From a bacterium (GTDB taxonomy: Bacteria > Zhuqueibacterota > Zhuqueibacteria > Oceanimicrobiales > Oceanimicrobiaceae): a stretch of DNA of 64,000 bases. The stretch spans positions 16,294 through 80,293 of the forward strand of contig JBBIIG010000014.1 of NCBI GenBank assembly GCA_037446635.1. Direction: 5' to 3'. The notes under the pieces were generated by a model that was given only the letters and a program-made list of their open reading frames with translations, was not told the origin of the DNA and ran no database searches. Both the position numbers and the translations under genes were made by a program. How positions within the stretch are numbered: position 1 is the stretch's first letter; each line of letters begins with the position of its first letter. Positions 3,129 to 42,868 of the stretch are shown in pieces.

Positions 3129-3172
3129 TATTAATCCAAATGGGAGTAATGGATTATTGGATCGTTGGATCG
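3129..3172. repeat. Family-G units (tattaatccaaatgggagtaatggattattggatcgttggatcg)
   Basis: Same TGGAGTAATGGATTA vocabulary as the other family-G sites. Followed by two hairpins (GCCCGCC...GGCGGGC 3194-3221; CTCAAAGC-GGA-GCTTTGAG 3223-3241). Confidence 0.65.
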
Positions 3173-4521: not shown

Positions 4522-4907
4522 ATGGGGAGGTCGTTGGCGCTCATGTCTCTTCGCCTCATGAGACCCTCCTCATCGAACTCCCAGTGCTCGTTGCCGTGCG
4601 TACGATACCATTGACCGGTATCGGCATCGCGCCATTCGTATTCAAAGCGCACGGAAATGCGGTTATCTGTGTAAGCCCAGAGTTCCTTCATGAGGCGGTA
4701 ATCCAATTCTTTCGCCCACTTTCGTTTCAAAAACTCTTTAATCGCTTCTCTCCCGGTGAAAAATTCAGTGCGGTTTCGCCATTGGGAATCTTCCGTATAA
4801 GCGAGCACAACCCGTTCGGGGTCGCGGGTATTCCAGGCGTCTTCAGCAGCCTTTACTTTCGCCCGTGCGGTCTCTGCAGTGAATGGAGGTTTTATCGGTT
4901 GCTTCAT
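4497..4907 (-). CDS. DUF1348 / NTF2-like family protein
   Basis: Full-length 136 aa [30 protein letters not shown]...[22 protein letters not shown] is typical of DUF1348. Confidence 0.85.
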
Positions 4908-5275: not shown

Positions 5276-5295
5276 CGATGTTTTTATGTCATTCG

Positions 5296-5898
5296 TTACA
5301 ACCGAATTCTTGCTGGGCAACACGATCTTAAAATATCCGGGTTTAATTTAGCGATTTCTTCGGCAATTTCTTCACTGGTGAATCGGGGTGTGATATGCTG
5401 CGGGCAGTTCCAATCAAAAGCCTGGATTTTGAAAATGATCAGACGCTCAATGTTGGCTTTGTAATCGGGCATCTTCAGTTCTTTTAACAATTCAGCATTC
5501 TGCTCGGCGTCGATCATTTCTGATTCAGCCCATATTTTCAGACGTTGTTGAGAAGGATAGTCCATTAAGAATAGTGACGCTTTACGGCTCGAATTGATGT
5601 TGCCAACACTGATGTATTGCATGTTGCCGCGAAAATCGGCATAGCCGAGCGTGGTGCTATCGATTACTTTCAGAAATCCTTTCGGACCACCGCGGAATTG
5701 CACATACGGCCAGCCGTTTTCGCCAACGGTAGCCATGTAAAAGCTGTCCCTTGATTCAATAAAAGAAATTTCTCTGTTTGTTAGAACATATTGGTTGCCG
5801 GACGCTTCCACACGGGCGTAGGATTGGCGAGAGCCGTACCGTTGCTGAGCCCTTCTAACGCTATCGGTGAAAGCAAACTTGGTGAAATTCTGGTTCAT
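5296..5898 (-). CDS. Pyridoxamine 5'-phosphate oxidase-like FMN-binding protein
   Basis: SFYMATVGENGWPYVQFRGGPKGFLKV...FRGNMQYISVGN is typical of the PNPOx-like split-barrel family. Confidence 0.85.
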   Translation of the reverse strand: MNQNFTKFAFTDSVRRAQQRYGSRQSYARVEASGNQYVLTNREISFIESRDSFYMATVGENGWPYVQFRGGPKGFLKVIDSTTLGYADFRGNMQYISVGNINSSRKASLFLMDYPSQQRLKIWAESEMIDAEQNAELLKELKMPDYKANIERLIIFKIQAFDWNCPQHITPRFTSEEIAEEIAKLNPDILRSCCPARIRL

Positions 5899-8062: not shown

Positions 8063-9613
8063 CTAGACCGGTTTCCTGATGCCCAGCTTCTGCATGCGAG
8101 AGCGCAGGGTATTGGGATTAATTCCTAACCGCAAGGCCGCACCCTTCGGTCCTTCGATGCGCCACTTCGTTTCCTGAAGAACCGATATGATATGATTTCG
8201 TTCAACATCCTCAAGGGTGGCGACGCTTAAAGCCGGGCTTGATGGCTTTTTCAAGAGTTCTAAGCTTTCATCCACTTGCAGAGTTTTGCCTTTTGCGAGA
8301 ATGATCGCTCGTTCGATAATGTTTTCCAATTCTCTGACATTTCCCGGAAAATGATAGCCTTGCAGAGTCTGCATGACTTGTTGTGACACTTGGGAAATCT
8401 TCTTTCCCATTTTTGCTCCGTATTTTTTGACGAAATGGTTGATGAGCAACGGAATGTCTTCCCGGCGTTCCCGAAGTGGCGGGAGCCTAATAGGAAACAC
8501 ATTCATTCGGTAGAAAAGATCATTCCGGAACTCACCGGATTGAACGGCGTGTTCCAGGTCCCGATTGGTAGCAGCTATCACCCGAACATTTACTTTGAGA
8601 GTCTGCGTGCCGCCGACTCTTTCAAATTCACCTTCTTGCAAAACACGCAGAAGTTTAGCCTGTAAGTCCAAAGGCAACTCACCAATCTCATCCAGAAAAA
8701 TAGTACCGCCATTTGCCAATTCAAAACGGCCTTGCTTGCGAGACAGGGCTCCCGTAAATGCTCCTTTTTCGTGGCCGAAGAGTTCGCTTTCGATCAAATT
8801 GGCAGGCAATGCAGCGCAGTTAACTTTTACGAGCGGTCTTTCCCTGCGCGGACTAATCGTATGTAACGCGCGCGCAATGAGTTCCTTGCCGGTGCCGGTT
8901 TCTCCCAATATGAGCACCGTCGCATCTGTTACAGCTACCCTCTCCACATTTCTCAGGACTTTCTTAAACGGCTTACTCGTGCTAATGATTTCATCAAAGT
9001 TGTGTTCGAGTTTGATTTCTTCCTGTAAATAGACGTTTTCGGCCTGGAGCCGGTTTTTCAATTCCACAACTTCTGAGAAAAGCTGGGCGTTTTTAATTGC
9101 AATGGCCGCCTGGTTGGCAAAAACGGCCAGTCGATCAAATTCTGCCGGCGTCATGACCCGACGGCTGAACATGGCAATGACGCCAAGCAATTCACCGCGA
9201 AAGATAAGTGGGTGGCCTGCAAAGGACTGCAACATGTTCTCCACGAGCCACTTTTTGTTTGGGAGCCGATCATCGTTCAGCACATCATTTGTGGACAGCG
9301 GTTCTCTACTCTGGCCAATTTCTCCGATCTTTAATGCACCGAGAGGAACTCGCCGATACCCCCCATGCGTGCGTGTGTACATCCCGGCACTGGCCTTCAG
9401 GTGTAAGCATTGTTCTCGGCTGGAGCAGCTATCCGCTTTGTAGCATTCCGCGCACAGGTCGCCCGGACCGAGCAGCCAGATGCGTGCAAAGGCCGCGTCT
9501 AATTCATCTACCAGACCTTGGGTAATTGTGGTAAGCACTTCCTGAAGGTTCAGACGCGAGGTCATCTGGAGTGTGATACGCTCGAAACTGTCGTCTTTGA
9601 GTTTTTGCTTCAT
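8063..9613 (-). CDS. Sigma-54-dependent transcriptional activator (GAF - AAA+ - Fis HTH)
   Basis: GETGTGKE Walker A, GAFTGA loop (EKGAFTGA), [10 protein letters not shown], and a C-terminal HTH. N-terminal GAF-like domain, no receiver domain. Confidence 0.95.
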
Positions 9614-13545: not shown

Positions 13546-13640
13546 TGATTGGAGTGATGGAGCGTCCATCGTGAAGTGATAAAGGGGAGTAATGGAAAAA
13601 CAACGCATCAATCCATTAATCCAGCAATCCATCACTCCAT
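13546..13640. repeat. Family-G inverted array (gattggagtgatggag ... catcaatccattaatccagcaatccatcactccatt)
   Basis: GGAGTGATGGA at 13550-13560 is mirrored by TCCATCACTCC at 13627-13637, with internal ggggagtaatgg units. Confidence 0.75.
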
Positions 13641-15425: not shown

Positions 15426-15585
15426 TCTCATTCGCACCAATAGACAAATAAACCCGATATTTCGATCCCCCTGAAATATCGGATTCTACCTCGATTTTTT
15501 CCCTCAACTAATCCTTATTTCAAAGCCCCGTAAGTTTCTTTATCAACATCCGTTTGTAATTCCAAGCAGGCGGCTGTTTTTATTT

Positions 15586-15600
15586 TGGCACAGCGCTTGT
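15586..15600 (+). promoter_or_regulatory. Weak candidate sigma-54 promoter upstream of the YHS-like gene
   Basis: TGGCAC-AGCGC-TTGT has the correct spacing, but the -12 element is GT rather than GC. It lies 82 nt upstream of ATG 15682. Confidence 0.3.
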
Positions 15601-15681
15601 TTAATCCTGAGCCGTCGACAAACTCAGTTTTGGCTAATTAGCTGTACAATTTACAAACCTTGAAAATAAGGAGAACAATTA

Positions 15682-22647: not shown

Positions 22648-22660
22648 CAGTCGACGACTT

Positions 22661-22896
22661 GCCACGCACTTCAAAAGTGCGTGGCACGTTTTGAGTAACC
22701 TGGAATTGCCTGGCACTTTAAAAGTGCCAGGCAATTTTAATCCCGTGCCATGCCCTTCAAAAGTGCCTGGCAAGTGTATAACCAAAAACTCCCTTCACTC
22801 TCGAACCTTTCCTCGAGTCAGGCGCTGGGCTAAGTTAGCCGGCGCCTGTTTTATTTTGAAGTGCACAAGTGCCAGGCACTTTCAAAGTGCCTGGCA
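22661..22896. repeat. Cluster of four family-A palindromes (GCCAGGCACTT-N-AAGTGCCTGGC)
   Basis: Copies at 22661-22685 (variant GCCACGCACTT/AAGTGCGTGGC), 22706-22734, 22747-22772 (degenerate) and 22870-22896. All lie just 3' of a T9SS cargo gene. Confidence 0.9.
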
Positions 22897-22907
22897 CTTT
22901 GTCTCCC

Positions 22908-22923
22908 CGGCTTTTCTGTTGCA
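22908..22923 (+). promoter_or_regulatory. Candidate sigma-54 promoter upstream of lipoprotein gene 22987
   Basis: CGGCTT-TTCTG-TTGCA with correct GG/GC spacing and a perfect -12 TTGCA, but a weak -24 element. It lies 64 nt upstream of the ATG. Confidence 0.35.
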
Positions 22924-22986
22924 TTTCAGGACGATTTGTTTTAAAATTCAACAAAATTCAACAAACAATTTTAGCCGCGATGACTC

Positions 22987-23979
22987 ATGAAACCACAACC
23001 GCAGAAGCTAGCGTTCGTCTACTTCGTTCTGGTTATTTGTGGCTGTCTCAACGACGCCGACCGCAACAACCCGCTCGATCCCGCTTCTCCAAATTTTAAA
23101 AACACCGGGGGCATTTCCGGGCAAACACTTAGTTTTTACTCGCCGTTTTCTCCTATCGCCGATGTGGAAGTTCGTTTAGACCCCGGCCCGCTGTTGACGA
23201 CCAGCGACGCTCAAGGCCGATTTAGTTTTGCAAATTTACTCGCGGCGGCCTACCAGATTCGCGCCTCCAAAGATGGGTATGCCGCAGTTTTCGACACGGT
23301 CGAAGTTCCGCTGCAGCAACTGGCACAAATAAGTTTGAATCTGGACGCCTTGCCCGTGATCACGAACCCCCGCGTCAGCTCCAGCCACATCAGCCGCTGG
23401 TGGCCGCAGACCGATTTGTATTTGCTCGCGGCCAACGTTCGAGTGGAGGATTTAGACGGCGTCAACGACATCGCCACCATCGAGTTGCTGATTCCGGATT
23501 TGAGTTTCGTCGATACGTTGTCGATGACGGCCGCGCCGGGAGTGTTTCAGATTCAGGTTCTGGAATCGCAGTTGCCGGGGCGCAACTTGCAGGAGGTGTT
23601 GGGACGAGAGATTTTGATTCGCGCCAAAGATCGCGCAGGCTTCAACAGCACGTCGGCGCCGCAGTTCATCGCCCGCATTATTGAGGAGGTGCCAATAACG
23701 TTATCTCCGCAGGGATTAGAAACCGTTGCCACCGCCAATCCCACTTTGCAGTGGCAGGCACTGAACCAGCCCTATCGCTTCACGTATCGCGTTGAGTTGT
23801 ATCGCGTGGATTTTGGCATTAACAATCTGGTTTGGCAACGTGGCGAGATTGATCGCGCTACCACAGAAATCATCGTCCCGGAAAATCTGACTCCCGGAAC
23901 TTATTTCTGGACTATCGCCGTAGTTGATGAATTTGGCAACCTGAGCCGCTCGAAAGAGGCCTCGTTTCAAGTGAATTAA
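22987..23979 (+). CDS. Lipoprotein with a carboxypeptidase-regulatory-like domain, otherwise unknown
   Basis: Lipobox VICGC. VEVRLDPGPLLTTSDAQGRFSFANLLAAAYQIRASKDGY. The rest is unrecognised. Confidence 0.7.
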   Translation: MKPQPQKLAFVYFVLVICGCLNDADRNNPLDPASPNFKNTGGISGQTLSFYSPFSPIADVEVRLDPGPLLTTSDAQGRFSFANLLAAAYQIRASKDGYAAVFDTVEVPLQQLAQISLNLDALPVITNPRVSSSHISRWWPQTDLYLLAANVRVEDLDGVNDIATIELLIPDLSFVDTLSMTAAPGVFQIQVLESQLPGRNLQEVLGREILIRAKDRAGFNSTSAPQFIARIIEEVPITLSPQGLETVATANPTLQWQALNQPYRFTYRVELYRVDFGINNLVWQRGEIDRATTEIIVPENLTPGTYFWTIAVVDEFGNLSRSKEASFQVN

Positions 23980-24000
23980 CCGGAGTAAAACGCTTAAGCG
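23971..24000. repeat. Family-C palindrome (CGGAGTRAAACGCTTAAGCGTTTCACTCCG)
   Basis: 14-bp arms with one mismatch. It overlaps the stop codon of 22987-23979 and is related to the units at 29702-29785. Confidence 0.8.
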
Positions 24001-24018
24001 TTTCACTCCGAAGTCTAT

Positions 24019-24042
24019 AGGGGCGTATGACTATACGCCCCT
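24019..24042. repeat. Family-B palindrome (AGGGGCGTAT-N4-ATACGCCCCT)
   Basis: Perfect 10-bp arms. A second copy lies at 32804-32831. Confidence 0.85.
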
Positions 24043-24059
24043 GCGAAGTGAACCACCAA

Positions 24060-25547
24060 ATGCAAATCAAATCCAACAACTCGCGCTCTTCCCTCGAAGC
24101 CCTTTCCGAAATCGCGCAGGTGATCAACACCATTCAGGAGATCGATCCCCTGCTCGAAAAAGTTTTGGAGATCGCAATGGCCACGCTGGAAGCGGAGCGC
24201 GGATTCGTGCTGCTAAAATCTGCCGCGGCGCCGCAGGGTTTCGAAATCCGCAGCAGCCGCAATTTCGCCGAAACGCAGATTTCCGATCTCACCCGCATTT
24301 CCACCAGCGTGGTGCAAGCGGTGCTGAGCGCCGGCGAACCGTTGCTGGTTTATGAAGCGCAGACCGATCCCAAATTCCGCGAGACCGAGAGCGTGGTGCT
24401 GCAAAAAATCCAGTCCATTGCCTGTGTGCCGCTGCGGCTGAAAGCCAAACAGATCGGCGCCATTTATCTCGACAGCCTCACCCGCCGCAGCAAATTCACG
24501 CAGGACAGCCTGCCGTTTCTGACGGCGTTCGCCAATCAGGCCGCCATCGCCATTGAAAATGCCAAGCTCTATCACGCCCTGCGGGATGAAAATCGCCGGC
24601 TGCGCTCTGAGGTGCAGCGGCTGCACGGTTTCAAAGAGATCATCGGGCAGAGCCCGAAGATGCGCGCGGTGTTCGACATGCTGAGCCGGGTAGTGGAGTC
24701 CGATGCCACCGTGCTCATCGAAGGCGAGAGCGGCACCGGCAAAGAACTGATCGCCCGCGCGCTGCATTACAACGGGCCGCGCAAAGACCAGCCGTTCATG
24801 GCGCTGTTTTGCGGCTCGCTGCCGGACTCGCTGTTGGAAAGCGAGCTCTTCGGCCACAAAAAGGGCGCGTTCACCGGCGCGGTTTCGGACAAACGCGGAC
24901 TTTTTGAAGCGGCGGACGGCGGCACGTTTTTTCTCGATGAAATCGGCGATCTCAGCCCGCAAATTCAAACCAAGCTGTTGCGCGTTTTGCAGGAGGGCGA
25001 AATCAAACGCGTGGGCGAAAATCAAATTCGCAAAGTGGACGTGCGCATCGTCTCCGCTACCAACAAAGTGCTCAAAGATTTGGTGAAAGCCGGCAGCTTT
25101 CGCGAAGACTTGTTTTATCGCCTCAACACCATCAACATCGTGTTGCCGCCGCTGCGCCAGCGCAAAAGCGACATCCCGCTTTTAGCGCATCACTTTCTCG
25201 ACAAGTATGCCGCCAAGAAAAAAAATCACATCAAAGGATTCGACAAATCCGCGCTCGAGGCGTTGACGAATTATTTGTGGCCCGGCAACGTGCGCGAGCT
25301 GGAAAACACGATCGAACGCGCGGTGGTGATGGCGCGCGGTGAGTTTATCACCGTCGCGGATTTGCAACTGCCGAAAAATGAGCCCGCGGCAGAAATCGAA
25401 TCCGGTTTAACTCTGGAAGAAGTCGAAAAGCGGTTGGTGCAAAAAACATTGCTGGATCAAAACCATAATATCTCCGAAACCGCGCGCGTGCTGGGCGTGT
25501 CGCGGCGCTGGCTGCATTATAAAATCAAAGAATGGAATATTTCGTGA
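24060..25547 (+). CDS. Sigma-54-dependent transcriptional activator (GAF - AAA+ - Fis HTH), paralogue of 8063-9613
   Basis: [24 protein letters not shown], and a C-terminal HTH ([22 protein letters not shown]). ATG 24060 is preferred because ATG 24027 sits inside the family-B hairpin. Confidence 0.95.
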
Positions 25548-25593
25548 GCAATTCGTAAATCGCTGAGCAAGGTGTTAATTAAGAGAATGGAGT

Positions 25594-25830
25594 ATTGGAT
25601 TGATGGAGTAATGGATTAATGCGCCAGCGTTCCCACTCCTTGCCAAGGAGGGGGTTAGGGGGGTCGGTGATCTGATGTGGAGTTGTGGAGTACTGGATTA
25701 ATAGATGACTGCTTTGGGACGATGCGCTCTTCGCTTGACCCGTACGAATGTGCGCTTTTTCATCACTCCACTACTCCATCAATCCATTACTCCAATAATC
25801 CAATAATCCAATAATCCATCAACTCCGTCA
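25594..25830. repeat. Family-G array pair: forward TGGAGTA/TGGATTA units (25594-25631) and inverted units (25771-25830) around a ~140 bp core
   Basis: Left arm: atggagtattggattgatggagtaatggattaatg. Right arm: catcactccactactccatcaatccattactccaataatccaataatccaataatccatcaactcc. Confidence 0.85.
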
Positions 25831-25846
25831 TCGAAATTATCAAGAC

Positions 25847-27571
25847 ATGAAGACGACGAAAGAGATCGGGGGAATTCAAATTTTCGCCGAAATCCATTCG
25901 GGCGCCACCACGTTGGTGTTCAAAGGCTATCAGCCGGCGCTCGACCGCATGGTGCTGCTCAAAGTGCTGCGCCCGGAATTTAATCACGACGCCGAACTCA
26001 CCCGGCGCTTCGAGGAGGAGGCGCGCCTCACCGCCAAAATCCAGCATCCGAACGTGGCCGCGATTTACGATTACGGCCGCGCCGGCGACTGGCGCTACTT
26101 CGCCGCCGAATTTGTGGAAGGGTTTAATTTAGGAGAAATCATTCATCAGCGAAAACTGCCGCCGGAATTGGCCGCGTTCATTTTGTTGGAATGTGTGCGC
26201 GGACTGAAAGCCGCTCACGACAAAAAAATTTTGCACCGCGATCTCAAACCTTCGAACATCTTGATTTCCCACGAAGGTCAGGTGAAGCTCACCGACTTCG
26301 GCATGGCTTCGCTGCGGCCAAGCGCAGAGCAGCAACTTGAAGAAAAAATTTCCGGAACGTTAGCCTATCTCGCGCCCGAACAAATTTTGGGAAAGCCTGC
26401 CAGTCCCTCCTCCGATATTTTTTCGCTGGGCGCGACTTTCTTCGAAATGGTGACCGGCGAACCGGCATTTGCCGGTGAAAATCCCGGCAATATATTCGAG
26501 GTAATATTGCATTCAGATCCTTTCGCAAAAATTTCCAGCGCCGCTTTCCCGGAAATATGGCGGCGAATTTGTGCGAAGATGCTGGCAAACGATCCGGCGC
26601 AACGATACAGCGAGTGCTCTGCGCTGATCGCAGACATTGAGGTCGCTGGCGTTTTTGTAAATTCTTCTGACTTGAAAAGTTATTTGTTCGATCCAGTTAG
26701 TTATTTAGAAAAAGTCGTGATCGCCCCGGGTTCCGTTTCCAGGTTTTCGCCGACTGCCACGGAAGGTGCTCGTTCGGGATTTTTCCGCCTGCGCGGGCAG
26801 GCAATTCCGCACGCTACGTTGCGCCGAGTCTGGCCGGCAGCCGCGGCGATAATCCTTATCGTTATGGCTGCGGCTATTGGGTTTTCATTTTTGCAAAAGA
26901 AAGAAAAACTAGCTTTGCGCGAAGAGCAGCAGGCAGCATTTTTATCACCATCAGACTCAAACGCCATTCAAAATAATCAATCAAAATTTGTTGATGAGCC
27001 GAAGCCAACCACAACCGTCGCAGCACGCGAAGCTGAAATTAATGCGCCAGCGCAACCGCAGCCAGGGCAAATGATGATTGGGATTGAAAAAGACGCAACC
27101 CCATCAGCCCAAATTCCGGCCGAACATCCGGCGCCGGAGTTTGGCTATTTGACTATCATCTGCACGCCGTGGGCAGCGGTTTTTGTCAACGGCGATTCGC
27201 TCACCACGACGCCGCTGCGCTCGCCGATAAAATTACCGCTCGGCCGCCATGAGTTGATTTTGCGAAATCCGCAATTTCCAGAATTCAAGCAGTGGATCGA
27301 ATTAAGTGAGGAAAATACGACGATCGAAATTTCGCTGTGGAGTCTGGTCGGCACGCTCAAATTAGAAGTGAGTCCGTGGGCGGAAGTTTATGTCGATGGC
27401 CAATACCAAGACACGGTGCCGCCGCAGCGGCGGCCGCTGATTTTGTCGCCGGGCCAGCACGTGCTCATGCTCAAACATCCGCAATTAGGCGCGTGGGAGA
27501 CGCCTATTGAGATCGCCGCCGGCAAAAATTTGGAGATGAAATTTAATCTTCAAACCCTGCTGTCAAAATAG
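25847..27571 (+). CDS. Hanks-type Ser/Thr protein kinase with a TM helix and two C-terminal PEGA-like domains
   Basis: HRDLKPSNILIS, DFG, GTLAYLAPE. TM segment VWPAAAAIILIVMAAAIGFSF. PEGA-like GYLTIICTPWAAVFVNG and GTLKLEVSPWAEVYVDG. Confidence 0.9.
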   Translation: MKTTKEIGGIQIFAEIHSGATTLVFKGYQPALDRMVLLKVLRPEFNHDAELTRRFEEEARLTAKIQHPNVAAIYDYGRAGDWRYFAAEFVEGFNLGEIIHQRKLPPELAAFILLECVRGLKAAHDKKILHRDLKPSNILISHEGQVKLTDFGMASLRPSAEQQLEEKISGTLAYLAPEQILGKPASPSSDIFSLGATFFEMVTGEPAFAGENPGNIFEVILHSDPFAKISSAAFPEIWRRICAKMLANDPAQRYSECSALIADIEVAGVFVNSSDLKSYLFDPVSYLEKVVIAPGSVSRFSPTATEGARSGFFRLRGQAIPHATLRRVWPAAAAIILIVMAAAIGFSFLQKKEKLALREEQQAAFLSPSDSNAIQNNQSKFVDEPKPTTTVAAREAEINAPAQPQPGQMMIGIEKDATPSAQIPAEHPAPEFGYLTIICTPWAAVFVNGDSLTTTPLRSPIKLPLGRHELILRNPQFPEFKQWIELSEENTTIEISLWSLVGTLKLEVSPWAEVYVDGQYQDTVPPQRRPLILSPGQHVLMLKHPQLGAWETPIEIAAGKNLEMKFNLQTLLSK

Positions 27572-27587
27572 TGGAACGCCATTTGCC
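27572..27587 (+). promoter_or_regulatory. Candidate sigma-54 promoter for the Kelch/TPR operon
   Basis: TGGAAC-GCCAT-TTGCC with correct spacing, 74 nt upstream of ATG 27660. Confidence 0.5.
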
Positions 27588-27659
27588 TTTTTCATGGCCG
27601 GTTTGGCTCGGACCATTCATCAGCGGGAAAAATTTGCACAATAAACTGGAATTTTCAAC

Positions 27660-28910
27660 ATGAAACAGATCGTCTTTTTTTTGATTGTGCTTGGTTGGTT
27701 GGTGTGGGTTGAGGACATCTCGGCGCAAGCCGGCTGGATTTTCAAAACGCCGATGCCCACGGCGCGCGCCGGCATTTGCGCCGCGGTGCTCGACGGCAAA
27801 GTCTATGTGATGGGCGGCCGCAGCAGCAGCGGCCAGGTGCTCGATTTGGTGGAGCGATACGACCCGCAAAACGACCGTTGGGAAAGTTCGCCGCGTTTGC
27901 GGGATGGGCGCGAGAACGCCGCGGCGGTGGTTTATGATGGCACCATCTTTGTGCTCGGCGGCCGCGATCACGAAGGAGAAGTCATAAAGAAGGTAGAATT
28001 TTTTAATCACAATAGAAATGAATGGGAGGGCTTTGATGATATGTTAGAAAAGCGGGAGGGGCTCGGCGCCGTAGTGGTGAATGGTCTTCTGTATGCCGTG
28101 GGCGGTGGCGATGAACACGAAGTGTTGTTGGATGGCGTGGAATTTTTTGATCCAAGCCAGCGGAAATGGATTAAAGCGAATGACTGGCAGCTGATTTTGC
28201 CGGCGGCATCGCTGGTCGCGGTGGCGGTGCGGGATTCCGCCTTCACCATCGGCGGATTTGGGGGCGTGTTGGGACCGCTGAATATTGTGCAGCGGTACTA
28301 CGCCGGCTTGGAAACGGCGGTGCGTGCCTCCCTGCTGATTGGGCGCGGGGGGTCGGCTGTCGTCGCCCGCGGCGACTCCATTTTCGTTTTGGGAGGAAGC
28401 GGATTGTTGGGCACGTTAAATTCCGTTGAGGTGTTCATCCCGAAATTCAATCGCTGGGAAAGCTTCTCATCTCTGCAAACCGCCCGCGAGAACTTCGCCG
28501 CGGTGGCGGTGGATCACACGCTGTTCGTCTTTGGCGGCCGCGGCGCCAACGGCCACGCCCTCAACTCCGTGGAAGCGTATGAGCTCGTGACCGCGGTGGA
28601 AGACGAGCCGCCGATTTTGCCGCTCGGTTTTGCGCTGGAGCAAAACTATCCCAATCCCTTCAATGCTGGCACGAAGATCGTTTTTCGTGTTCCAGCCTCT
28701 AACAGTACGGCGGCGATTCGATTAGAGATTTTTAATGTGCGCGGCGCGCGCGTGGCAACTTTGGTCGATGGGCCGCGGCTGCCAGGCGAGTACGAAGTGT
28801 TTTGGGACGGCGCTGATTTTCAAAAGCGGCCGGTTGCCAGCGGAATTTATGTGTACATATTAGAAATGGGCGGACAACGCATCGCCAAAAAAATGATCCT
28901 GAGCCGATGA
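27660..28910 (+). CDS. Kelch-repeat beta-propeller protein with a T9SS C-terminal sorting domain
   Basis: Repeated GGR..G..L..VE.YDP..N.W units. C-terminal NYPNPFNAGTKIVF...GIYVYILEMGGQRIAKKMILSR. Confidence 0.9.
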   Translation: MKQIVFFLIVLGWLVWVEDISAQAGWIFKTPMPTARAGICAAVLDGKVYVMGGRSSSGQVLDLVERYDPQNDRWESSPRLRDGRENAAAVVYDGTIFVLGGRDHEGEVIKKVEFFNHNRNEWEGFDDMLEKREGLGAVVVNGLLYAVGGGDEHEVLLDGVEFFDPSQRKWIKANDWQLILPAASLVAVAVRDSAFTIGGFGGVLGPLNIVQRYYAGLETAVRASLLIGRGGSAVVARGDSIFVLGGSGLLGTLNSVEVFIPKFNRWESFSSLQTARENFAAVAVDHTLFVFGGRGANGHALNSVEAYELVTAVEDEPPILPLGFALEQNYPNPFNAGTKIVFRVPASNSTAAIRLEIFNVRGARVATLVDGPRLPGEYEVFWDGADFQKRPVASGIYVYILEMGGQRIAKKMILSR

Positions 28911-29701
28911 AACCTACTATTATTTTTCTGATTCTATTTTTGCAGGCTACCGTTTTTGGACAGGGCGCCGAGCGCGATCTGATTGAAGAAATTCAAACGG
29001 CGTACAATCAATTGAATTACCCGGAAGCGGAAATCAAAGCGCAGGCGGCGCTCAAAGATTTCCAGCGCTTCACTCCCGCCCAGTTGACCGAGATTCACAA
29101 AATTTTAGCTCTCATTTATTTTTCTCAAAACCAAGAAGACGCCGCCCGTTTGCAATTTGAAAATGCGCTGTCGCTCTCGCCGGATTTAAAACTCGACCCG
29201 CTGTTTGTCTCGCCCAAGATCGTGGAGTTTTTTGAGGACATAAAAAAAGCGCGCGCGGCAAAGGTGAATGATGCCGGCGCGCCGCGAGCGGATGTGCGGT
29301 ACGTGCTAGTGCAAGACCCGCGTCCGGCCGCGGCCATGCGCTCGATGATTTTGCCGGGCTGGGGCCAGCTTTATAAAGGCGAGAAAACCAAAGGTCGCGT
29401 GCTGCTCGGACTCTGGAGCGCCGGCGTCATAGGAACCGTCGCCGCACACATTGCCCGCGCCAACGCCGAGGACAAATACCTTGCGGAAACCGATCCCAAT
29501 CGCATCGAATCCCGTTACGACGCCTTCAACCGTTATCACAAGCTGCGCAACAACCTGTTGATTTTCTCCGGCGGCGTCTGGCTCTTCAGCTACCTCGACG
29601 CCATCGTCAAAAAACAAAATCCCAATTATTCCTCTCAAAATTCCGTTCTCATTCTCCCAAATTTCGACAAACCGCAGGTGAGCTTCGTCGTTCGTTTCTA
29701 A
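28907..29701 (+). CDS. TPR-like N-terminal / DUF5683-like membrane protein
   Basis: ATGA start-stop overlap with the Kelch gene. Signal peptide and a TPR-like helix pair. The ILPGWGQLYKGEKTKG motif followed by two hydrophobic helices resembles DUF5683 (recollection). Confidence 0.65.
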   Translation: MKPTIIFLILFLQATVFGQGAERDLIEEIQTAYNQLNYPEAEIKAQAALKDFQRFTPAQLTEIHKILALIYFSQNQEDAARLQFENALSLSPDLKLDPLFVSPKIVEFFEDIKKARAAKVNDAGAPRADVRYVLVQDPRPAAAMRSMILPGWGQLYKGEKTKGRVLLGLWSAGVIGTVAAHIARANAEDKYLAETDPNRIESRYDAFNRYHKLRNNLLIFSGGVWLFSYLDAIVKKQNPNYSSQNSVLILPNFDKPQVSFVVRF

Positions 29702-29785
29702 CCGGAGTGAAACGCTTTAGCGTTGCAGTTTCCCTGTGGAGTGCCAAACTTTAGTTGGCCTACGTCACCTAAAGCTTGACACTCC
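29702..29785. repeat. Three family-C units GGAGTG-N6-CTTTAG (two direct, one inverted)
   Basis: ggagtgaaacgctttag (29704-), ggagtgccaaactttag (29738-), and the inverted copy cacctaaagcttgacactcc (ending 29785). Confidence 0.75.
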
Positions 29786-29927
29786 TCGCCTGCGCAAACT
29801 TTTCTCACGCCATTGCAAACCCTGCGCATACCAATTTTTCAACGACTCAATTGGGCGCGTTAAATCACGAATCGTAAACCATCACAAGATTACCACTTAA
29901 CGCCCCTCGATTGTGACGCGACCGCGC

Positions 29928-29942
29928 TGGCATCGCCTTTGC
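29928..29942 (+). promoter_or_regulatory. Candidate sigma-54 promoter for the DUF5666-repeat cargo gene
   Basis: TGGCAT-CGCCT-TTGCG with correct spacing, 57 nt upstream of ATG 29999. Confidence 0.6.
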
Positions 29943-29998
29943 GTGATGAACGTCCAAACCAATTCACCCAATTTATTTCAAAAATAGGAGGATTTGTC

Positions 29999-32740
29999 AT
30001 GCCAACGGTACGGTTTACAAAATCAATTTTATGGACGTTGCTGGCGAGCGCGATATTGCTGGCCGCAACGAACCTGTGGGCGGCGGGAGAATTCGTTCTA
30101 TCCACGCGCTCCGATTTTTCCACCAATGATCGCATTTTCACCCGCGACGACACGCTGTTCATGAAAGTCATTGTGCCCAATATCGATGTCACTGAAATTC
30201 ACGACAACGAATTTCGTTTGCACGCTGAGAGCGGCGGCGGAAATTTCGAGGGCAAATTCACCAACCATCTGAACGGCACCTTCACCGCGAAGCTGGCGCT
30301 AAAAAACGCCGATCCCGGCGAAGCTAACTGGGAATGGCGCGGCCGCATCCGCGATCGCCACGGCCGCGAATTTGAAGCCGAAGTGAATCTGCAAATCGTC
30401 GCCAGCATCAATGGCGATATCGAAGTGAGGCTCAAGGGTAAGATTGAGGCACTGGGTGCGGATTTTGTCGTTGTCCAAAAAACGAAAGTCTTTGTGGATG
30501 CCCATACCCAAATCGTTGATGAAAATGGACAGGCGTTGACGTTCGTCGATTTGCGCGTCGGGCAGTCGGTGACAGTGACCGCGGTACGGAAAGAGAACGG
30601 CGATCTACTGGCGCGGCGCATCGCGTTTGTTTCGCGTTCGGAAAACGAACTGGAGTTGAAAGGCGTCATCGAAAGCATCGACGAAAGCAGTCTCGTGGTG
30701 CTTGGTCTCACGTTCAAGGTCGATGCCAACACCGAAATTGAAGACCACGACAACAACCCGATTTCGTTGAATGATTTATCGGTTGGCCAGTTCGTGGAAA
30801 TCAAAGCGAAAATTCAGAGCGACGGCTCGCGGCTGGCGCTGCGCATCCGCGTTGAAGATCACTCCGGTGAAATCGAATTGAAGGGGAAAATTGAAGCGCT
30901 GGGCGACCACAGTTTGGTTGTCTCCGGCGTGACGTTTGAAGTTACAGCGAATACCGAAATCCTCGGCGACGATAACCAGCTTATTTCGTTTGCCGATTTG
31001 CAGGTCGGCTTTTTGGTGGAGGTGAAAGGCATTCCAACTCAAGGGGAAACGATCATGGCAACGCGCATCAAAGTGGAGGGAGAATTATTTGTCGATGATG
31101 AAATCGAGTTTACCGGGCTGGTGTTCGAGGTCGGCGATCATTTCATCGTGGTTTCCGGGTTGCGATTTGAAGTGAGCGCCGCCACCGTGATTTTAGATGA
31201 CGACAATCATCCCATTACTTTGGCCGACATTCGCGCCGGCGTGTTTGTGGAAATTCGCGCGGACGTTGCCGCCGATGGCTCATTGCAAGCGACCAAAATT
31301 AAAATCGAAGATCGCTTCGACGATGAGGTCGAATTGACCGGCGAAATCGAAAGCATCGGAGAAAACACCCTGACGGTCGATGGCAAAGTTTTTGTGGTCA
31401 ACGAAAGCACGGTGGTGCTGGACAACCGGAACCTGCCGATTCCCTTCAGTGCGCTGCAGGTTGGGATGCTCGTCGAAGTGCGCGCTGATTTGCAGTTGGA
31501 CGGCTCGCTGCTGGCGACGCGCATCAAAATCGAAGATCGCGATGACGACGAAGTGGAGCTGACGGGCCGCATTGAGGCGATTGTTGGCCAAACGCTGGTG
31601 GTCGGCGGCTTCACGTTCACCGTGGACGCCAACACCGTTGTTCTCGACAACCGCAATAACGCAATCGCCTTTGCCGACCTGCGCGTTGGGTTGATTGTGG
31701 AGATTCGCGCCGATAAGCAATTGGACGGAACGCTGCTCGCCACCCGCATCAAAATTGAAGACCGCATGGCAGACGAAGTGGAAATCACCGGATTGATTGA
31801 AGCCCTCACCGAGTCCGCGATCACCGTCGCAGGCCAAACCTTCCTGTTCACGGAAAACACCATCGTGCTGGATAATAACAATTTGCCCATTCCGCGCGCG
31901 AATCTTTCGGTGGGGCAGCGGGTGGAAATCAAAGGCGATCTTTTGGCGGACGGCACGCTCATCGCGCTGCGAATAAAATTAGAGGACGGCGCCAACAACG
32001 AAGTGGAGGTTGAAGGGCCAATCTCCGCGGTTGGTCTCGGCACGCTTGCGGTTCTGGAAAATAATTTCATCGTCAACCTCGGCACCGAGATTCTCGACAT
32101 CAACAATTTGCCAATCACATTGGGCGATTTGTTAGTTGGACAGGTCGTGAAAGTGCGCGCTGTGCTGGAACTGAACGGCACGCGCATCGCTACGCGCATT
32201 CAGTTGAAAAACGTGGTTGTGATGTCAGGCAATATCGCGCAGGTGAACGTGAATAGCGTGGTGATTTTGAATAAAGTTGTGAAGATTGATGCCAACACGT
32301 TGATTCTGGCCGAACAGAATCGCGCCATCGCTTTTGCGGATTTGAAAGTCGGCGACCGCGTGGAAGTGCGCGGTGAGCCGCAGCCCAACGATGAAGTAAA
32401 CGCGACGAAAATCAAAACTCAGCAGCCGAATGTGATTACCGGTATCGGCGATTCTGATGCGGGTTCCAACCTTCCCAAGCAGTTTGCGCTGGAGCAGAAT
32501 TATCCCAATCCCTTCAACCCGAGCACGAACATCAGTTACAATCTCGCGCGCGACGGCCGGGTTCGTCTCGCGGTGTACAACTTGCTGGGTCAGCGAGTCG
32601 CCACGCTGGTGGACGAGGTTCGCCCGGCTGGGAGTCACACTTTAACCTGGAATGCCGCGAATCTTCCCAGCGGCATTTACATCTACCGTCTGGAAGCCGG
32701 CGGCAATGTGTTGTCGCGGCGGATGACACTTTTGAAGTGA
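29999..32740 (+). CDS. Large secreted protein: nine tandem DUF5666-like modules plus a T9SS C-terminal sorting domain
   Basis: AGGAGG RBS before ATG 29999, then a signal peptide. ~70 aa modules of pattern E(L/V)xGxIE(A/S)(I/L)...TF.V.ANT.(I/V)LD..N..I.FADL.VG..VE(I/V)RA....DG(S/T)LLATRIKIED. C-terminal NYPNPFNPSTNISY...GIYIYRLEAGGNVLSRRMTLLK. Confidence 0.85.
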   Translation: MPTVRFTKSILWTLLASAILLAATNLWAAGEFVLSTRSDFSTNDRIFTRDDTLFMKVIVPNIDVTEIHDNEFRLHAESGGGNFEGKFTNHLNGTFTAKLALKNADPGEANWEWRGRIRDRHGREFEAEVNLQIVASINGDIEVRLKGKIEALGADFVVVQKTKVFVDAHTQIVDENGQALTFVDLRVGQSVTVTAVRKENGDLLARRIAFVSRSENELELKGVIESIDESSLVVLGLTFKVDANTEIEDHDNNPISLNDLSVGQFVEIKAKIQSDGSRLALRIRVEDHSGEIELKGKIEALGDHSLVVSGVTFEVTANTEILGDDNQLISFADLQVGFLVEVKGIPTQGETIMATRIKVEGELFVDDEIEFTGLVFEVGDHFIVVSGLRFEVSAATVILDDDNHPITLADIRAGVFVEIRADVAADGSLQATKIKIEDRFDDEVELTGEIESIGENTLTVDGKVFVVNESTVVLDNRNLPIPFSALQVGMLVEVRADLQLDGSLLATRIKIEDRDDDEVELTGRIEAIVGQTLVVGGFTFTVDANTVVLDNRNNAIAFADLRVGLIVEIRADKQLDGTLLATRIKIEDRMADEVEITGLIEALTESAITVAGQTFLFTENTIVLDNNNLPIPRANLSVGQRVEIKGDLLADGTLIALRIKLEDGANNEVEVEGPISAVGLGTLAVLENNFIVNLGTEILDINNLPITLGDLLVGQVVKVRAVLELNGTRIATRIQLKNVVVMSGNIAQVNVNSVVILNKVVKIDANTLILAEQNRAIAFADLKVGDRVEVRGEPQPNDEVNATKIKTQQPNVITGIGDSDAGSNLPKQFALEQNYPNPFNPSTNISYNLARDGRVRLAVYNLLGQRVATLVDEVRPAGSHTLTWNAANLPSGIYIYRLEAGGNVLSRRMTLLK
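30419..32420 (+). repeat. Coding tandem repeat (9 x ~210 nt, diverged) inside 29999-32740
   Basis: Module starts: KGKIEALGADF, KGVIESIDESS, KGKIEALGDHS, TGLVFEVGDHF, TGEIESIGENT, TGRIEAIVGQT, TGLIEALTESA, EGPISAVGLGT, SGNIAQVNVNS. The copies are similar but clearly diverged at nucleotide level, by eye. Confidence 0.85.
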
Positions 32741-32757
32741 CCCGGAATTGCCCGGAA

Positions 32758-32786
32758 TTGCCTGGCACTTCAAAAGTGCCAGGCAA
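32758..32786. repeat. Family-A palindrome, near-identical to copy 22706-22734
   Basis: GGAATTGCCTGGCACTT(C/T)AAAAGTGCCAGGCAATTTTAA(C/T)CCC is shared over ~45 nt with 22702-22745. It is preceded by a CCCGGAATTG x2 direct duplication. Confidence 0.9.
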
Positions 32787-32803
32787 TTTTAACCCCACGT
32801 TGT

Positions 32804-35507: not shown

Positions 35508-35638
35508 AGTGAGTTTCTCTCACTTTTGCGTTTCCGTTTATCAGAAATAAGAAAAGTTCTCTCCCCACGGAAATCTCCCAATTCAGCAGAGCTTTATAAA
35601 TCAGTCGGTTAAACTCCTCTAGAATCTCACCCAAAATC

Positions 35639-35654
35639 TGGCATCATTTTCGCT
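35639..35654 (+). promoter_or_regulatory. Candidate sigma-54 promoter for the beta-eliminating lyase gene
   Basis: TGGCAT-CATTT-TCGCT with correct GG/GC spacing, 54 nt upstream of ATG 35708. Confidence 0.45.
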
Positions 35655-40842: not shown

Positions 40843-41823
40843 TTGACCCATTTTTTTAAGACGATTTTTTTGGTCTTTTGCCTGCTGGTCTCCGCCACCA
40901 CGGCGCTGGCGCAGGCCGGTAAGGCCGGCGCCTTTTTACGGCTGGGCGTCAGCGCCCGCGCCAAAGCCATGGGCGACGCCTACACCGCGATGGCGCGTGG
41001 CGCCGAAGCCAGTTATTACAATCCGGCGGGATTGCCTTTTCTCGAGCACAAGGAAGTTGCGGCGTCGTACTGGCTGCTTTCCCTCGATCGCCAATTCACT
41101 TACATCGGTTTTGGATTGCCCATTCACCCAAAGGAAGATAGCACTGGCCGCGGCGCCTTCGACGGCGGCTTCGCGCTTTCGTGGATTCACGCCGGCGTGG
41201 ACAATATCGATGGCCGCGACACCGACGGCCAGTCCTTTGGCGACATCTCCAACTCGGAAGACGCGTTCGTGTTTTCGTTTGCGCTGAATCCGGTGCAGAA
41301 ATTATCGCTGGGACTTTCGGTGAAGATTTTGTGGAACCGCTTTCCCGATCTCGGAATTGATGGGCAAACCATCTCCGCCACCGGCGTGGGCTTCGATTTT
41401 GGCGCCCTGCTGACGCCGGCGCCGTGGCTCACGTTGGGCGTTTCGGTGCGCGACATCAATTCCAAATATACCTGGAACACGCAGGATTTGTACGGCGAAG
41501 ATGACGGCTCCGAAACCACTAACAAGTTTCCAAAAATTTTGCGGGTGGGCGCCGCCTTTCAGCCGCCGCAAATTCCGAACGTGACCTTGGCATTTGATTT
41601 TGAGGACAGCAAAGAGCTGGACAACCGGGTTCACTTCGGCGCAGAGGCGGTACTGGGAAACCATCTGTTTCTCCGCAGCGGCTTTGATGACGGTTCGCTC
41701 GCTGCCGGCGCCGGCTACGGTTTCGGCGTGTTCGGCAGGATGTCGCAGATCAATTATGGCTTTGCCTCCGCTGGTGACCGTCCGGAGGCCGAGCATGTTT
41801 TCAGTTGGGTGTTTCAGTTTTAG
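40843..41823 (+). CDS. PorV/PorQ-family outer-membrane beta-barrel protein
   Basis: AAGGAG RBS with a TTG start, then a signal peptide. AGAFLRLGVSARAKAMGDAYTAMARGAEASYYNPAGL is the family N-terminal signature as I recall it. Alternating beta pattern, C-terminal F. Confidence 0.75.
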   Translation: MTHFFKTIFLVFCLLVSATTALAQAGKAGAFLRLGVSARAKAMGDAYTAMARGAEASYYNPAGLPFLEHKEVAASYWLLSLDRQFTYIGFGLPIHPKEDSTGRGAFDGGFALSWIHAGVDNIDGRDTDGQSFGDISNSEDAFVFSFALNPVQKLSLGLSVKILWNRFPDLGIDGQTISATGVGFDFGALLTPAPWLTLGVSVRDINSKYTWNTQDLYGEDDGSETTNKFPKILRVGAAFQPPQIPNVTLAFDFEDSKELDNRVHFGAEAVLGNHLFLRSGFDDGSLAAGAGYGFGVFGRMSQINYGFASAGDRPEAEHVFSWVFQF

Positions 41824-41947: not shown

Positions 41948-42868
41948 GTGAGAAATATTCAAATTACAACCGTATTGATTTGCTCGCTCGGCGTTTTTTT
42001 GAACTCAGCCTTTGCCCAAACCGGCAGCGCCGGCGCCACCGGGCTGGCGTTTCTGAAATTGGGCGTTGGCGCGCGCGCTAACGGCATGGGGGAGGCCTTT
42101 GTCGCGGTTGCCAATGACGCCGCCGCCACGTTCTGGAATCCGGCCGGTCTTTCCCAACTCGAACGTTCGCATTTCACCTTCACGCACAGCGAATGGATTC
42201 AGGATATTTCCAGCGAGTTTCTGGCGTTGGCGTTTCCGGCTTTTGGCGGCGTGACCGGCTTCAGCGTTTACGTCAACAATGTGGGCGGCATTGAACGCCG
42301 CGTCAACCCTTCTGAAGAACCGCTTGGAACCATTGACGCCAACGATGTTGCTCTGGGCGTCTCGTATGGCCGCTCGTTGGGTTCATCCATGCAGGCCGGC
42401 ATCACGGTAAAATATCTTTACGAGAAAATTTACCTGGAAAGCGCTTCGGGGTATGCTTTTGATTTCGGCCTGAATGTTCAACCTTTTGGCAGCGCGTTAA
42501 ATTTGGCGGTCGCGGCGCAGAATTTAGGCTCAATGAATGAGCTGCTGGCCGAGTCCATCGATTTGCCGAAAACCCTGCGCTTCGGCGCCGCTTATTCGTT
42601 TCCGCTGGCCGCGCTCGATGGCGCGGTGGTGCTGGCTGCAGAGGGCGTCAAAGTTGTGGAGAACGATCTGCGCGGCAGCTTCGGCGCCGAAGTGCAATTG
42701 AAAAAAATGCTGGCTTTACGCTTGGGATACCAGAGTGGCTACGAGGATAGAAGCTTGGCCGGCGGGTTTGGTTTGTCCTTCCAGCGCTACCACCTCGATT
42801 ATGGCTACACCCCGGTTGGTTCGAATTTAGGCGATACCCATCGTTTTTCCTTCGGCCTGGATTGGTAA
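41948..42868 (+). CDS. PorV/PorQ-family outer-membrane beta-barrel protein (second paralogue)
   Basis: Signal peptide. GSAGATGLAFLKLGVGARANGMGEAFVAVANDAAATFWNPAGLSQL. C-terminal ...HRFSFGLDW. Confidence 0.8.
   Translation: MRNIQITTVLICSLGVFLNSAFAQTGSAGATGLAFLKLGVGARANGMGEAFVAVANDAAATFWNPAGLSQLERSHFTFTHSEWIQDISSEFLALAFPAFGGVTGFSVYVNNVGGIERRVNPSEEPLGTIDANDVALGVSYGRSLGSSMQAGITVKYLYEKIYLESASGYAFDFGLNVQPFGSALNLAVAAQNLGSMNELLAESIDLPKTLRFGAAYSFPLAALDGAVVLAAEGVKVVENDLRGSFGAEVQLKKMLALRLGYQSGYEDRSLAGGFGLSFQRYHLDYGYTPVGSNLGDTHRFSFGLDW

Follow-up and report, generated by a model that had tools for sequence, protein, structure and literature searches.

A predicted sigma-54 regulon of type IX secretion cargo genes, with a NifA-like candidate activator encoded alongside, conserved from KSB1-labelled to Rhodothermaceae genomes

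The genome of a bacterium of the Zhuqueibacterota (assembly GCA_037446635.1) contains a cluster of six genes, all in one orientation, that includes two genes for predicted cargo proteins of the type IX secretion system (T9SS), and the question raised by this locus is how expression of these proteins is controlled. The stretch of DNA that was analyzed, hereinafter the window, spans 64 kb (contig JBBIIG010000014.1, positions 16,294 to 80,293), and the cluster lies within 22987-32740 of it, with all its features on the plus strand. The genes encode a lipoprotein with a CarboxypepD_reg domain and an Ig-like C-terminus (22987..23979), an enhancer-binding protein (EBP) with the NifA-like GAF-AAA+-helix-turn-helix (HTH) architecture (24060..25547), a Hanks-type Ser/Thr kinase with one transmembrane helix and extracytoplasmic PEGA domains (25847..27571), a Kelch beta-propeller protein with a T9SS type A C-terminal sorting domain (CTD; 27660..28910), a TPR/DUF5683 membrane protein (28907..29701, overlapping the Kelch gene by 4 nt), and a secreted protein with 9 DUF5666 repeats and a CTD of the same type (29999..32740). 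A first-pass annotation of this DNA placed sigma-54-type (-24/-12) elements in front of three units of the cluster and proposed that the EBP, possibly together with the kinase, controls them. Direct reading locates all three strings at those positions, with the GG-N10-GC spacing in each: site 1 (CGGCTT-N5-TTGCA, CGGCTTTTCTGTTGCA, 22908..22923) precedes the lipoprotein gene, site 2 (TGGAAC-N5-TTGCC, TGGAACGCCATTTGCC, 27572..27587) precedes the Kelch-TPR unit, and site 3 (TGGCAT-N5-TTGCG, TGGCATCGCCTTTGCG, 29928..29943) precedes the DUF5666-CTD gene. Cross-genome conservation separates the three, which is why we accept sites 2 and 3, but not site 1: the accepted pair behaves like true -24/-12 promoters, each belonging to one of the two units predicted to encode T9SS cargo.

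The whole window was scanned on both strands with a sigma-54 matrix that is our own approximation of the published consensus and distinct from the curated one, so that the bit values are indicative only. On this scale, site 3 is the best match in the window (12.65 bits, rank 1), ahead of site 2 (10.5 bits, rank 9) and site 1 (9.5 bits, rank 22), the latter being indistinguishable from background on sequence alone. Within a single genome, scores of 9.5-12.7 bits arise about 20 times per 64 kb by chance.

Related loci were identified in several ways. A genome scan with the EBP yielded three orthologous loci (L001-L003, 76-88% identity); a search with the TPR/DUF5683 protein returned 138 homologues at E <= 1e-20, and the nine that were looked up all belong to the same cluster (L018-L026); finally, L017, a duplicate of L003, was among the matches listed in a metagenome scan with the TPR alignment. 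The source labels of these loci range from candidate division KSB1 to Rhodocaloribacter, and the TPR/DUF5683 protein of Rhodothermaceae bacterium RA clusters with the copy from L026. The gene order lipoprotein, EBP, kinase, Kelch, TPR, DUF5666 is retained in most of L001-L003 and L018-L026, that is, from KSB1-labelled to Rhodothermaceae genomes, which represent two phylum-level groups. L023 has the cluster without the Kelch gene, the TPR gene following the kinase gene after 9 nt with no promoter between them, and in the rearranged cluster of L021 the EBP and kinase genes are adjacent and overlapping, with the other genes nearby.

For 8 loci, the best matrix match within 130 nt of the start codon was compared with all 130-nt windows of the same locus, and the empirical p values were combined by Fisher's method; these values are conservative because the background contains true sites. 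The Kelch class (combined p = 1.3e-7) and the DUF5666 class (p = 1.2e-8) are each conserved in 7 of the 8 loci, in comparison with p = 0.88 for a control, the region upstream of the EBP gene. A motif of the form TGG(A/T/C)A(C/T)GC-N3-TTGC abuts or overlaps the stop codon of the kinase gene in the window and in L019, L018, L003, L020, L024, L001/L022 and L026, including the copy in L001 (ATGGTATGCTTATTGCT), the flanks of which have diverged to 39% GC. Similarly, a strong -24/-12 match is found 51-95 nt before the DUF5666 gene in six loci (L018, L019, L003, L020, L023 and L024; for example, TTGGCACTTGGTTTGCA in L020 and GTGGCACTGAAGTTGCA in L024), and in L021 it precedes a small open reading frame (ORF) located ahead of the DUF5666 gene; the consensus of this promoter class is cTGGCACcGcCtTTGC. 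Both sites retain their position, orientation and exact spacing among flanking sequences that cannot be aligned and that vary in GC content from 38 to 70% across the loci. In L003 (5941-7495) and likewise in L017, the TPR gene and the large DUF5666 gene are separated by an insertion of three small DUF5666 genes of one domain each, which have a consensus-perfect sigma-54 site of their own, CTGGCACCTCCCTTGCA, as well as a separate pair of palindromes (see below) 21 bp apart; the predicted regulon grows by the addition of DUF5666 genes.

The products of the two units are predicted to be exported to the cell surface because the Kelch and DUF5666 proteins contain T9SS type A sorting domains, scoring 26.7 and 41.1 bits, respectively, against TIGR04183, the cut-off of which is 23 bits. 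Both proteins have hydrophobic N-termini, and a signal peptide is recognized in the DUF5666 protein. Together with the other domain calls (Kelch_1, 169.3 bits; DUF5666, 405.5 bits in 9 stretches), these scores agree with the first-pass description of the Kelch-CTD, TPR-membrane and 9x DUF5666-CTD genes. The start of the DUF5666 gene is assigned to ATG 29999, with the ribosome-binding site AGGAGG ahead of it, and the alternative TTG at 29939 was rejected given that AGGAGG precedes ATG 29999 instead. Accessory T9SS genes are present in the same window, namely two genes for PorV/PorQ-family outer-membrane proteins (40843-41823 and 41948-42868; 101 and 172 bits against a cut-off of 90) and, on the minus strand (59137-63840), a gene for a PorU-related C25 protein of 1567 aa with ILEI, CARDB and CTD regions, which, at 288 bits, scores below the PorU cut-off of 420. 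The core genes gldKLMN and sprA were not seen in the 64-kb window.

The situation at site 1 is different. The first-pass reading of this string as the promoter of the lipoprotein unit did not hold: of 9 loci, only the window, L020 and the window's close relative L019 retain its GG-N10-GC, which is gone or shifted in the other six; for example, the spacing is off by 1 nt in L023 and L001, GG is replaced by CG in L002, and there is nothing comparable in L024 and L021. The conservation of the lipoprotein class (p = 1e-3) is carried by only 2 of the 8 loci. Of the TGGCAC consensus, site 1 matches only GGC, without the T at -26. By contrast, a sigma-70-type promoter, TTGCAT-N17-TAAAAT (22919..22947), overlaps site 1 and has the form TTGCNT-N17-TANAAT, which has a single occurrence in the window, both strands considered; TTGC(A/T)T-N17-TA(A/G)AAT is shared by the window, L019, L020 and L002 at equivalent positions, and L001 and L023 have close variants of it. 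Because GG-N10-GC is lost in 6 of 9 loci while TTGCNT-N17-TANAAT is better kept, we conclude that site 1 is probably not a sigma-54 promoter and that its apparent -12 element, TTGCA, most likely belongs, as the -35 box, to a promoter of the housekeeping type that serves the regulator genes and would be that of the lipoprotein-EBP(-kinase) unit.

A promoter of its own is needed for this unit because four terminator-like palindromic hairpins of the TGCCWGGCACTTynAAAGTGCCWGGCA type (22660..22900) lie just upstream, after the preceding CTD gene. The 13-mer of these hairpins is present in 9 copies in the window compared to 0.1 expected, all of them at 22660-22900 or 32759-32785, and the hairpins at 22660-22900 are probable intrinsic terminators that would insulate the lipoprotein-EBP unit. 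We also considered the GTGCCAGGCAC hairpins next to site 1 as sigma-54 -24 boxes or activator sites; this was rejected, as there is no TTGC at the right spacing and the hairpins recur after another CTD gene, and by these features they behave as duplicated terminators. The other copy, AATTGCCTGGCACTT-CAA-AAGTGCCAGGCAATT followed by TTA (32756..32788), marks the end of the DUF5666 unit.

With two promoters accepted, the next question is what activates them. The EBP encoded in the cluster is an activator with a GAF input domain, as initially annotated, with the Sigma54_activat (PF00158, 236.9 bits), AAA_lid and HTH_8 (45.5 bits) domains and the GAFTGA loop at residue 269, which is GAFTGA or GSFTGA in all orthologues. 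Among the orthologues, the identity of the GAF domain ranges from 62% to 95%, and all 11 have an invariant recognition helix, VSRRWLHYK(I/L)KEW. Orthologue alignments place the true start of the gene at 24060 and not at ATG 24027, the other candidate, and an exact database look-up with the protein sequence from ATG 24027 found no record. The EBP aligns over its full length with the NifA structure 9qq6_C in PDB (residues 11-494) but, given the score of 430 bits against TIGR01817 (cut-off 528.85) and the lack of nif genes nearby, it was not accepted as NifA proper. It is indeed the second GAF activator in the window, as the first-pass annotation had it, the other one being encoded on the minus strand (8063-9613), with an HTH domain only 26% identical and an unrelated recognition helix.

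When the DNA upstream of the DUF5666 promoters was aligned, a recurring 17-bp palindrome came to light, TGYGCA-N5-TGCRCA, which is absent from the first-pass annotation and newly found here. In the window, there is a palindrome-like pair, TGCGCAAACTTTTCTCA and ATTGCAAACCCTGCGCA (29791..29828), a predicted enhancer or upstream activating sequence, with the two copies (29791-29807 and 29812-29828) 21 bp apart start to start; counted from the -24 G of site 3, their centres are at -131 and -110. Pairs with exactly this spacing are also found in L019, L023 and L024 and at the small DUF5666 genes of L003, and single perfect or near-perfect copies in L020, L026 and L025; overall, the palindromes are located at about -97 to -150 from the DUF5666-type promoters in all loci. 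Of the 19 matches with no more than one mismatch in roughly 215 kb of loci, 17 are located between genes and beside members of the cluster. An unbiased hexamer count in the -200 to -20 regions of 10 promoters ranked TGCGCA (p = 3.7e-10, in 9 of the 10 sequences) and TGCACA (p = 1e-9, 8 of 10) as the top two of 1083 hexamers.

At the Kelch promoter, a half-conserved copy of the palindrome (CGGGAAAAATTTGCACA, 27624..27640; consensus across loci, cGtGaAnAATTTGCaCA) has its centre 46 nt 3' of the -12 C of site 2. The centre of this 17-mer lies 43-47 nt 3' of the -12 C in 7 of 8 loci and 57 nt in L024, whereas the interval between the 17-mer and the ATG can be as short as 6 or as long as 47 nt, and because the former distance is fixed and the latter is not, we tie this site to the promoter rather than to initiation of translation. 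Two other interpretations of the DNA around this promoter were discarded: a second sigma-54 promoter with TTTGCACA, ahead of the Kelch gene, as its -12 box (both in the window and in L003, its GG would be misplaced by one), and an enhancer within the kinase gene, where weak matches about 412-424 nt before the stop codon in three loci fall in conserved coding DNA and are inseparable from codon conservation. Given the conserved synteny, the palindrome at both promoters and the invariant recognition helix of the HTH domain, the adjacent GAF EBP is most likely the activator of sites 2 and 3 or, at least, the best candidate; we infer its pairing with the palindrome from co-conservation.

We therefore propose a model, to which we assign a probability of roughly 0.7, in which the regulator unit is expressed from a sigma-70-type promoter, the Kelch-TPR and DUF5666-CTD units are expressed from sigma-54 promoters, and the adjacent EBP acts through the palindrome in response to the kinase, its GAF domain, or both. 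It builds on the domain content of the proteins and on the conservation of the two promoters, the palindrome and the gene order, all of which can be read from the compared loci. Under this model, the lipoprotein, EBP and probably kinase genes would be read from TTGCAT-N17-TAAAAT, and the EBP would bind TGYGCA-N5-TGCRCA through its invariant C-terminal HTH, both on the paired sites, which precede the DUF5666 promoter by about 110-130 nt in the classic geometry of an enhancer, and on a single site at about +35 of the Kelch promoter. ATP hydrolysis and the GAFTGA loop would then serve to open the closed complex of sigma-54 at TGGCAT-N5-TTGCG and TGGAAC-N5-TTGCC; the DUF5666 transcript would end at the hairpin at 32756-32788, and the T9SS would export the products to the cell surface. 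The activity of the EBP would be set by its GAF domain, by the membrane kinase, or by both; the PEGA domains of the latter could sense something outside the cytoplasm, and the kinase might act on the EBP by phosphorylation or by NifL-like direct contact.

Several observations weigh against this model or parts of it. Some of the loci are close relatives (window/L019, L003/L017 and L001/L022), such that the counts and p values are not fully independent. In the 70% GC genomes of L025 and L026, the DUF5666-type promoters (at 4660 and 11020, respectively; GGCACAGGnCTTGTC) have GT instead of GC at -12. No rpoN was seen among the large ORFs of the window, and tblastn with E. coli RpoN gave no hits in the window or in any of the loci; the presence of sigma-54 is deduced only from the EBPs and the promoters. 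With up to two mismatches, the palindrome is not enriched within the window alone (15 matches compared to 15.5 expected), so that the case for it rests on cross-genome footprinting. The left half of the Kelch site is degenerate in the window (3 mismatches), and this site lies downstream of the promoter, at a distance of only about 59 bp from -24, where an enhancer would not usually be expected; it could equally be an operator. Finally, the putative link between the kinase and the EBP comes from gene adjacency and overlap.

These points bear on several alternatives. All three sites might be sigma-54 promoters, the lipoprotein-EBP unit then being sigma-54 dependent and positively autoregulated. 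In addition to the spacing of site 1 and the p value of the lipoprotein class as a whole, this possibility is compatible with the better copy of site 1 in L020 (ATGGCTTTTCTATTGCA, 12.1 bits, 31 nt before the lipoprotein start), with the palindromes upstream of the lipoprotein gene in L024 (two copies, 0-1 mismatch) and L021, and with the EBP gene of L026, which carries a -24/-12-like element, CCGGTACGCCTCCTGCT, almost identical to the Kelch promoter of the same locus, TAGGTACGCCTCTTGCG (5290-5310; 8619-8635), suggesting autoregulation of the EBP in L026. Nevertheless, L001, L002, L023, L024 and L021 have either lost the invariant GG or have it 1 nt out of place, site 1 in the window is of low rank, with neither the CAC of TGGCAC nor the T at -26 and without a TGYGCA-N5-TGCRCA palindrome near it, and the sigma-70-type element is better conserved and unique in the window; we consider this scenario, or a dual role of the site, doubtful. 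Another possibility is that the promoters are real but the palindrome is bound by an EBP encoded elsewhere, with the adjacent GAF EBP regulating something else. Genomes of this kind usually encode several EBPs, there is a second one in this very window, and the pairing of the palindrome with the EBP comes from co-conservation only. However, about 12 loci from two phylum-level groups have kept the EBP, its putative targets and the palindrome together, the recognition helix is as invariant as the site itself and differs from that of the paralogue, and the palindrome is missing from the other sigma-54-like sites of the window, all of which makes an activator encoded elsewhere improbable. These other sites, which are among the top matrix matches, are CTGGCATCATTTTCGCT (35638-35654), located 54 nt before a beta-eliminating lyase gene (35708), TTGGCACAGCGCTTGTT (15585-15601), before a small ORF with a ribosome-binding site (ATG 15683), and GTGGCATACACCTTGCC (7916-7900, minus strand), which adjoins the gene of the second GAF EBP; no TGYGCA-N5-TGCRCA palindrome was found near any of the three, and they may be controlled by that second EBP.

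The sequence TTTGCACA before the Kelch gene could also be understood as part of a housekeeping promoter of the Bacteroidota type, the -7 box of which has the consensus TAnnTTTG (PMC9723704), or as a repressor operator, with Kelch-TPR expressed mainly from that promoter or by read-through from the kinase gene. The resemblance to TAnnTTTG is apparent in L001 (TATTTTGC), there is no terminator between the kinase and Kelch genes, and in L023 the gap between the kinase and TPR genes is promoter-free; but in most loci the TA is missing (AAAATTTG, GAAATTGC), the left half of the motif, YGTGAA, is conserved as well, and the joined halves fit the class of the upstream palindromes, such as GGTGAACAGTTTGCGCA in the enhancer of L024. 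Moreover, the motif is in register with the -24/-12 element and not with the ATG, and the lipoprotein promoter in the same organisms is of the classical -35/-10 type, so that we give this interpretation slightly less credence still. Lastly, the -24/-12 matches could be functionless chance occurrences in GC-balanced intergenic DNA, as might be suspected from the number of equally good scores expected per 64 kb. For sites 2 and 3, this is contradicted by conservation, that is, by the position, orientation and exact spacing that persist between unalignable flanks of 38-70% GC and by the co-occurrence with the conserved palindrome; chance is viable for site 1 only and, as an account of the locus, is very hard to believe. 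The initial proposal of sigma-54/EBP control of secreted T9SS proteins is supported for the two cargo units, through conservation, palindrome and recognition helix, but not for the lipoprotein unit.

The preferred model, with sigma-54 promoters for the two cargo units and the adjacent EBP as their activator, leaves a place for the kinase encoded between the EBP and the targets, where the first-pass annotation had correctly located it. This protein (Pkinase, 159.9 bits; PEGA, 28.7 bits; transmembrane helix at residues ~329-348) contains the HRDLKPSN, DFG and APE motifs along with a degenerate glycine loop, and the kinase domain is predicted to be catalytically competent. In 9 of 12 loci, the EBP gene shares 13-22 nt with the kinase gene; in the window, this overlap is broken by a 299-nt insertion (25548..25846) that consists of inverted arrays of an 8-nt repeat. 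Tentatively, the PEGA kinase might be the dedicated sensor of the GAF EBP, phosphorylating or gating it in place of a histidine kinase/receiver pair or of NifL, in which case there would be a conserved pathway from a Ser/Thr kinase to sigma-54 in the Fibrobacterota-Chlorobiota-Bacteroidota (FCB) superphylum, from KSB1-like bacteria to Rhodothermaceae, that turns on always the same set of T9SS-exported surface proteins, one activator site being unusually located downstream of its promoter. We regard this extended scheme as possible but rather unlikely in full, and the input to the EBP, through the kinase, the GAF domain or both, as the weakest step of the model. In the literature, we found nothing on an EBP phosphorylated by a Ser/Thr kinase. 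In a KSB1 locus (L020, 1-3257), two genes for GAF-SpoIIE proteins (PP2C-type phosphatases) are located just 5' of the cluster, and their products could be a phosphatase counterpart of the Hanks kinase.

A few other features of the cluster and its surroundings deserve mention. The 8-nt unit of the insertion, TGGAKTAA, forms inverted arrays at 25580-25830, with arms of 34 nt that are 88% complementary, and is also found between genes at 164-233, 3143-3160 and 13605-13638 (15 matches compared to 0.04 expected); this looks like a dispersed family of hairpin-forming repeats. The terminator-like hairpins, nearly identical at 22660-22900 and 32756-32788 (AATTGCCTGGCACTTyAAAAGTGCCAGGCAATT), come after two distinct CTD genes that share the ending ...RRMTLLK*, and flank the whole six-gene cluster; the 3' end of the sorting domain and the terminator appear to have been duplicated as one piece. 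A second type of hairpin, CCGGAGTRAAACGCTTWAGCGTT, follows the stop codons of the lipoprotein (23980-24012) and TPR (29702-29730) genes without a T-run and may be an element of RNA stability or processing. In three loci (L001, 6654-7170; L022, 4734-5129; L024, 10679-11343), a divergent gene for a single-domain response regulator is present after the TPR gene, and the intergenic DNA next to it contains a copy of the palindrome and a sigma-54-like site, for example in L001 (7164 and 7124-7108) and in L024 (11181 and 11327). The lipoprotein, the signal peptide of which includes the Cys, and the DUF5666 protein have no relatives among solved structures, and an Rfam search of the 5' leaders gave nothing significant.

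The cluster thus represents a predicted new, well-conserved sigma-54/EBP regulon of classical design with two unusual and unproven features, the Hanks kinase as a partner and the activator site downstream of a promoter. For phyla with almost no genetics, this is a concrete regulon that comprises two promoters, a 17-bp operator, one activator and a candidate sensor kinase, and given that the module is also present in cultured Rhodothermaceae, the predictions are experimentally testable. If the kinase link is true, this would be a clean natural case of Hanks-kinase input to a sigma-54 activator. The DUF5666 repeat protein, the function of which is not known, would obtain a first handle in the form of a predicted regulator and co-regulated partners; literature searches returned nothing on the function of DUF5666, on this cluster, or on KSB1 in connection with T9SS, and nothing useful on Rhodothermus and sigma-54.

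The suggestion in the first-pass annotation that a circuit of this kind is undescribed was overstated. In Flavobacterium psychrophilum, which belongs to the same superphylum, the remFG-sprCDBF gliding operon, encoding the T9SS-secreted surface protein SprB, is driven by a sigma-54 (SM4) promoter that has been mapped and mutagenised (PMC9723704). A -24/-12 promoter on an operon of T9SS cargo, predicted in the present case, is shared by the two systems. The Flavobacterium genes belong to other families, the activator and its binding site are unnamed there, and no kinase has been linked to the activator, while the evidence presented here is comparative only. Sigma-54 control of T9SS cargo would therefore extend beyond the single Flavobacterium case, with a likely activator and its site now named.

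Other known systems resemble this regulon in part. In Porphyromonas gingivalis, the PorX/PorY two-component system and the extracytoplasmic function sigma factor SigP control the genes of the T9SS machinery; as here, dedicated signaling is directed at T9SS-related genes but, unlike here, neither sigma-54 nor an EBP is involved, and the targets are the machinery rather than the cargo. The idea of a Hanks-type kinase feeding a sigma-54 activator is shared with the FHA-domain EBPs of Myxococcus xanthus, which are thought to receive input from Ser/Thr kinases, whereas the EBP described here has a GAF domain and no FHA domain, and the kinase gene is translationally coupled to the EBP gene in most genomes. 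For an activator site downstream of a promoter, there is a parallel in Caulobacter, where the ftr sites of FlbD, which activates or represses depending on site position, can lie downstream of flagellar sigma-54 promoters; the Kelch site is much closer to its promoter (centre at about +35), and FlbD is an EBP of the response-regulator type.

The closest analogy is with NifA, which produces the best matches to the EBP and has the same combination of GAF, AAA+ and HTH domains without a receiver domain. The nif promoters, too, have a TGT...ACA-type dyad enhancer about 100 or more nt upstream of the -24/-12 element, although the nif site is TGT-N10-ACA, compared to TGYGCA-N5-TGCRCA, that is, TGT-N11-ACA, in this case. 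In nifL-nifA, the gene of the sensor partner is adjacent and translationally coupled to that of the activator, as the gene of the putative partner is in most copies of the present cluster; NifL, however, is a PAS/flavin anti-activator, whereas the putative partner here is a transmembrane Hanks kinase, and NifA targets nitrogenase, whereas the predicted targets of this EBP are secreted surface proteins.

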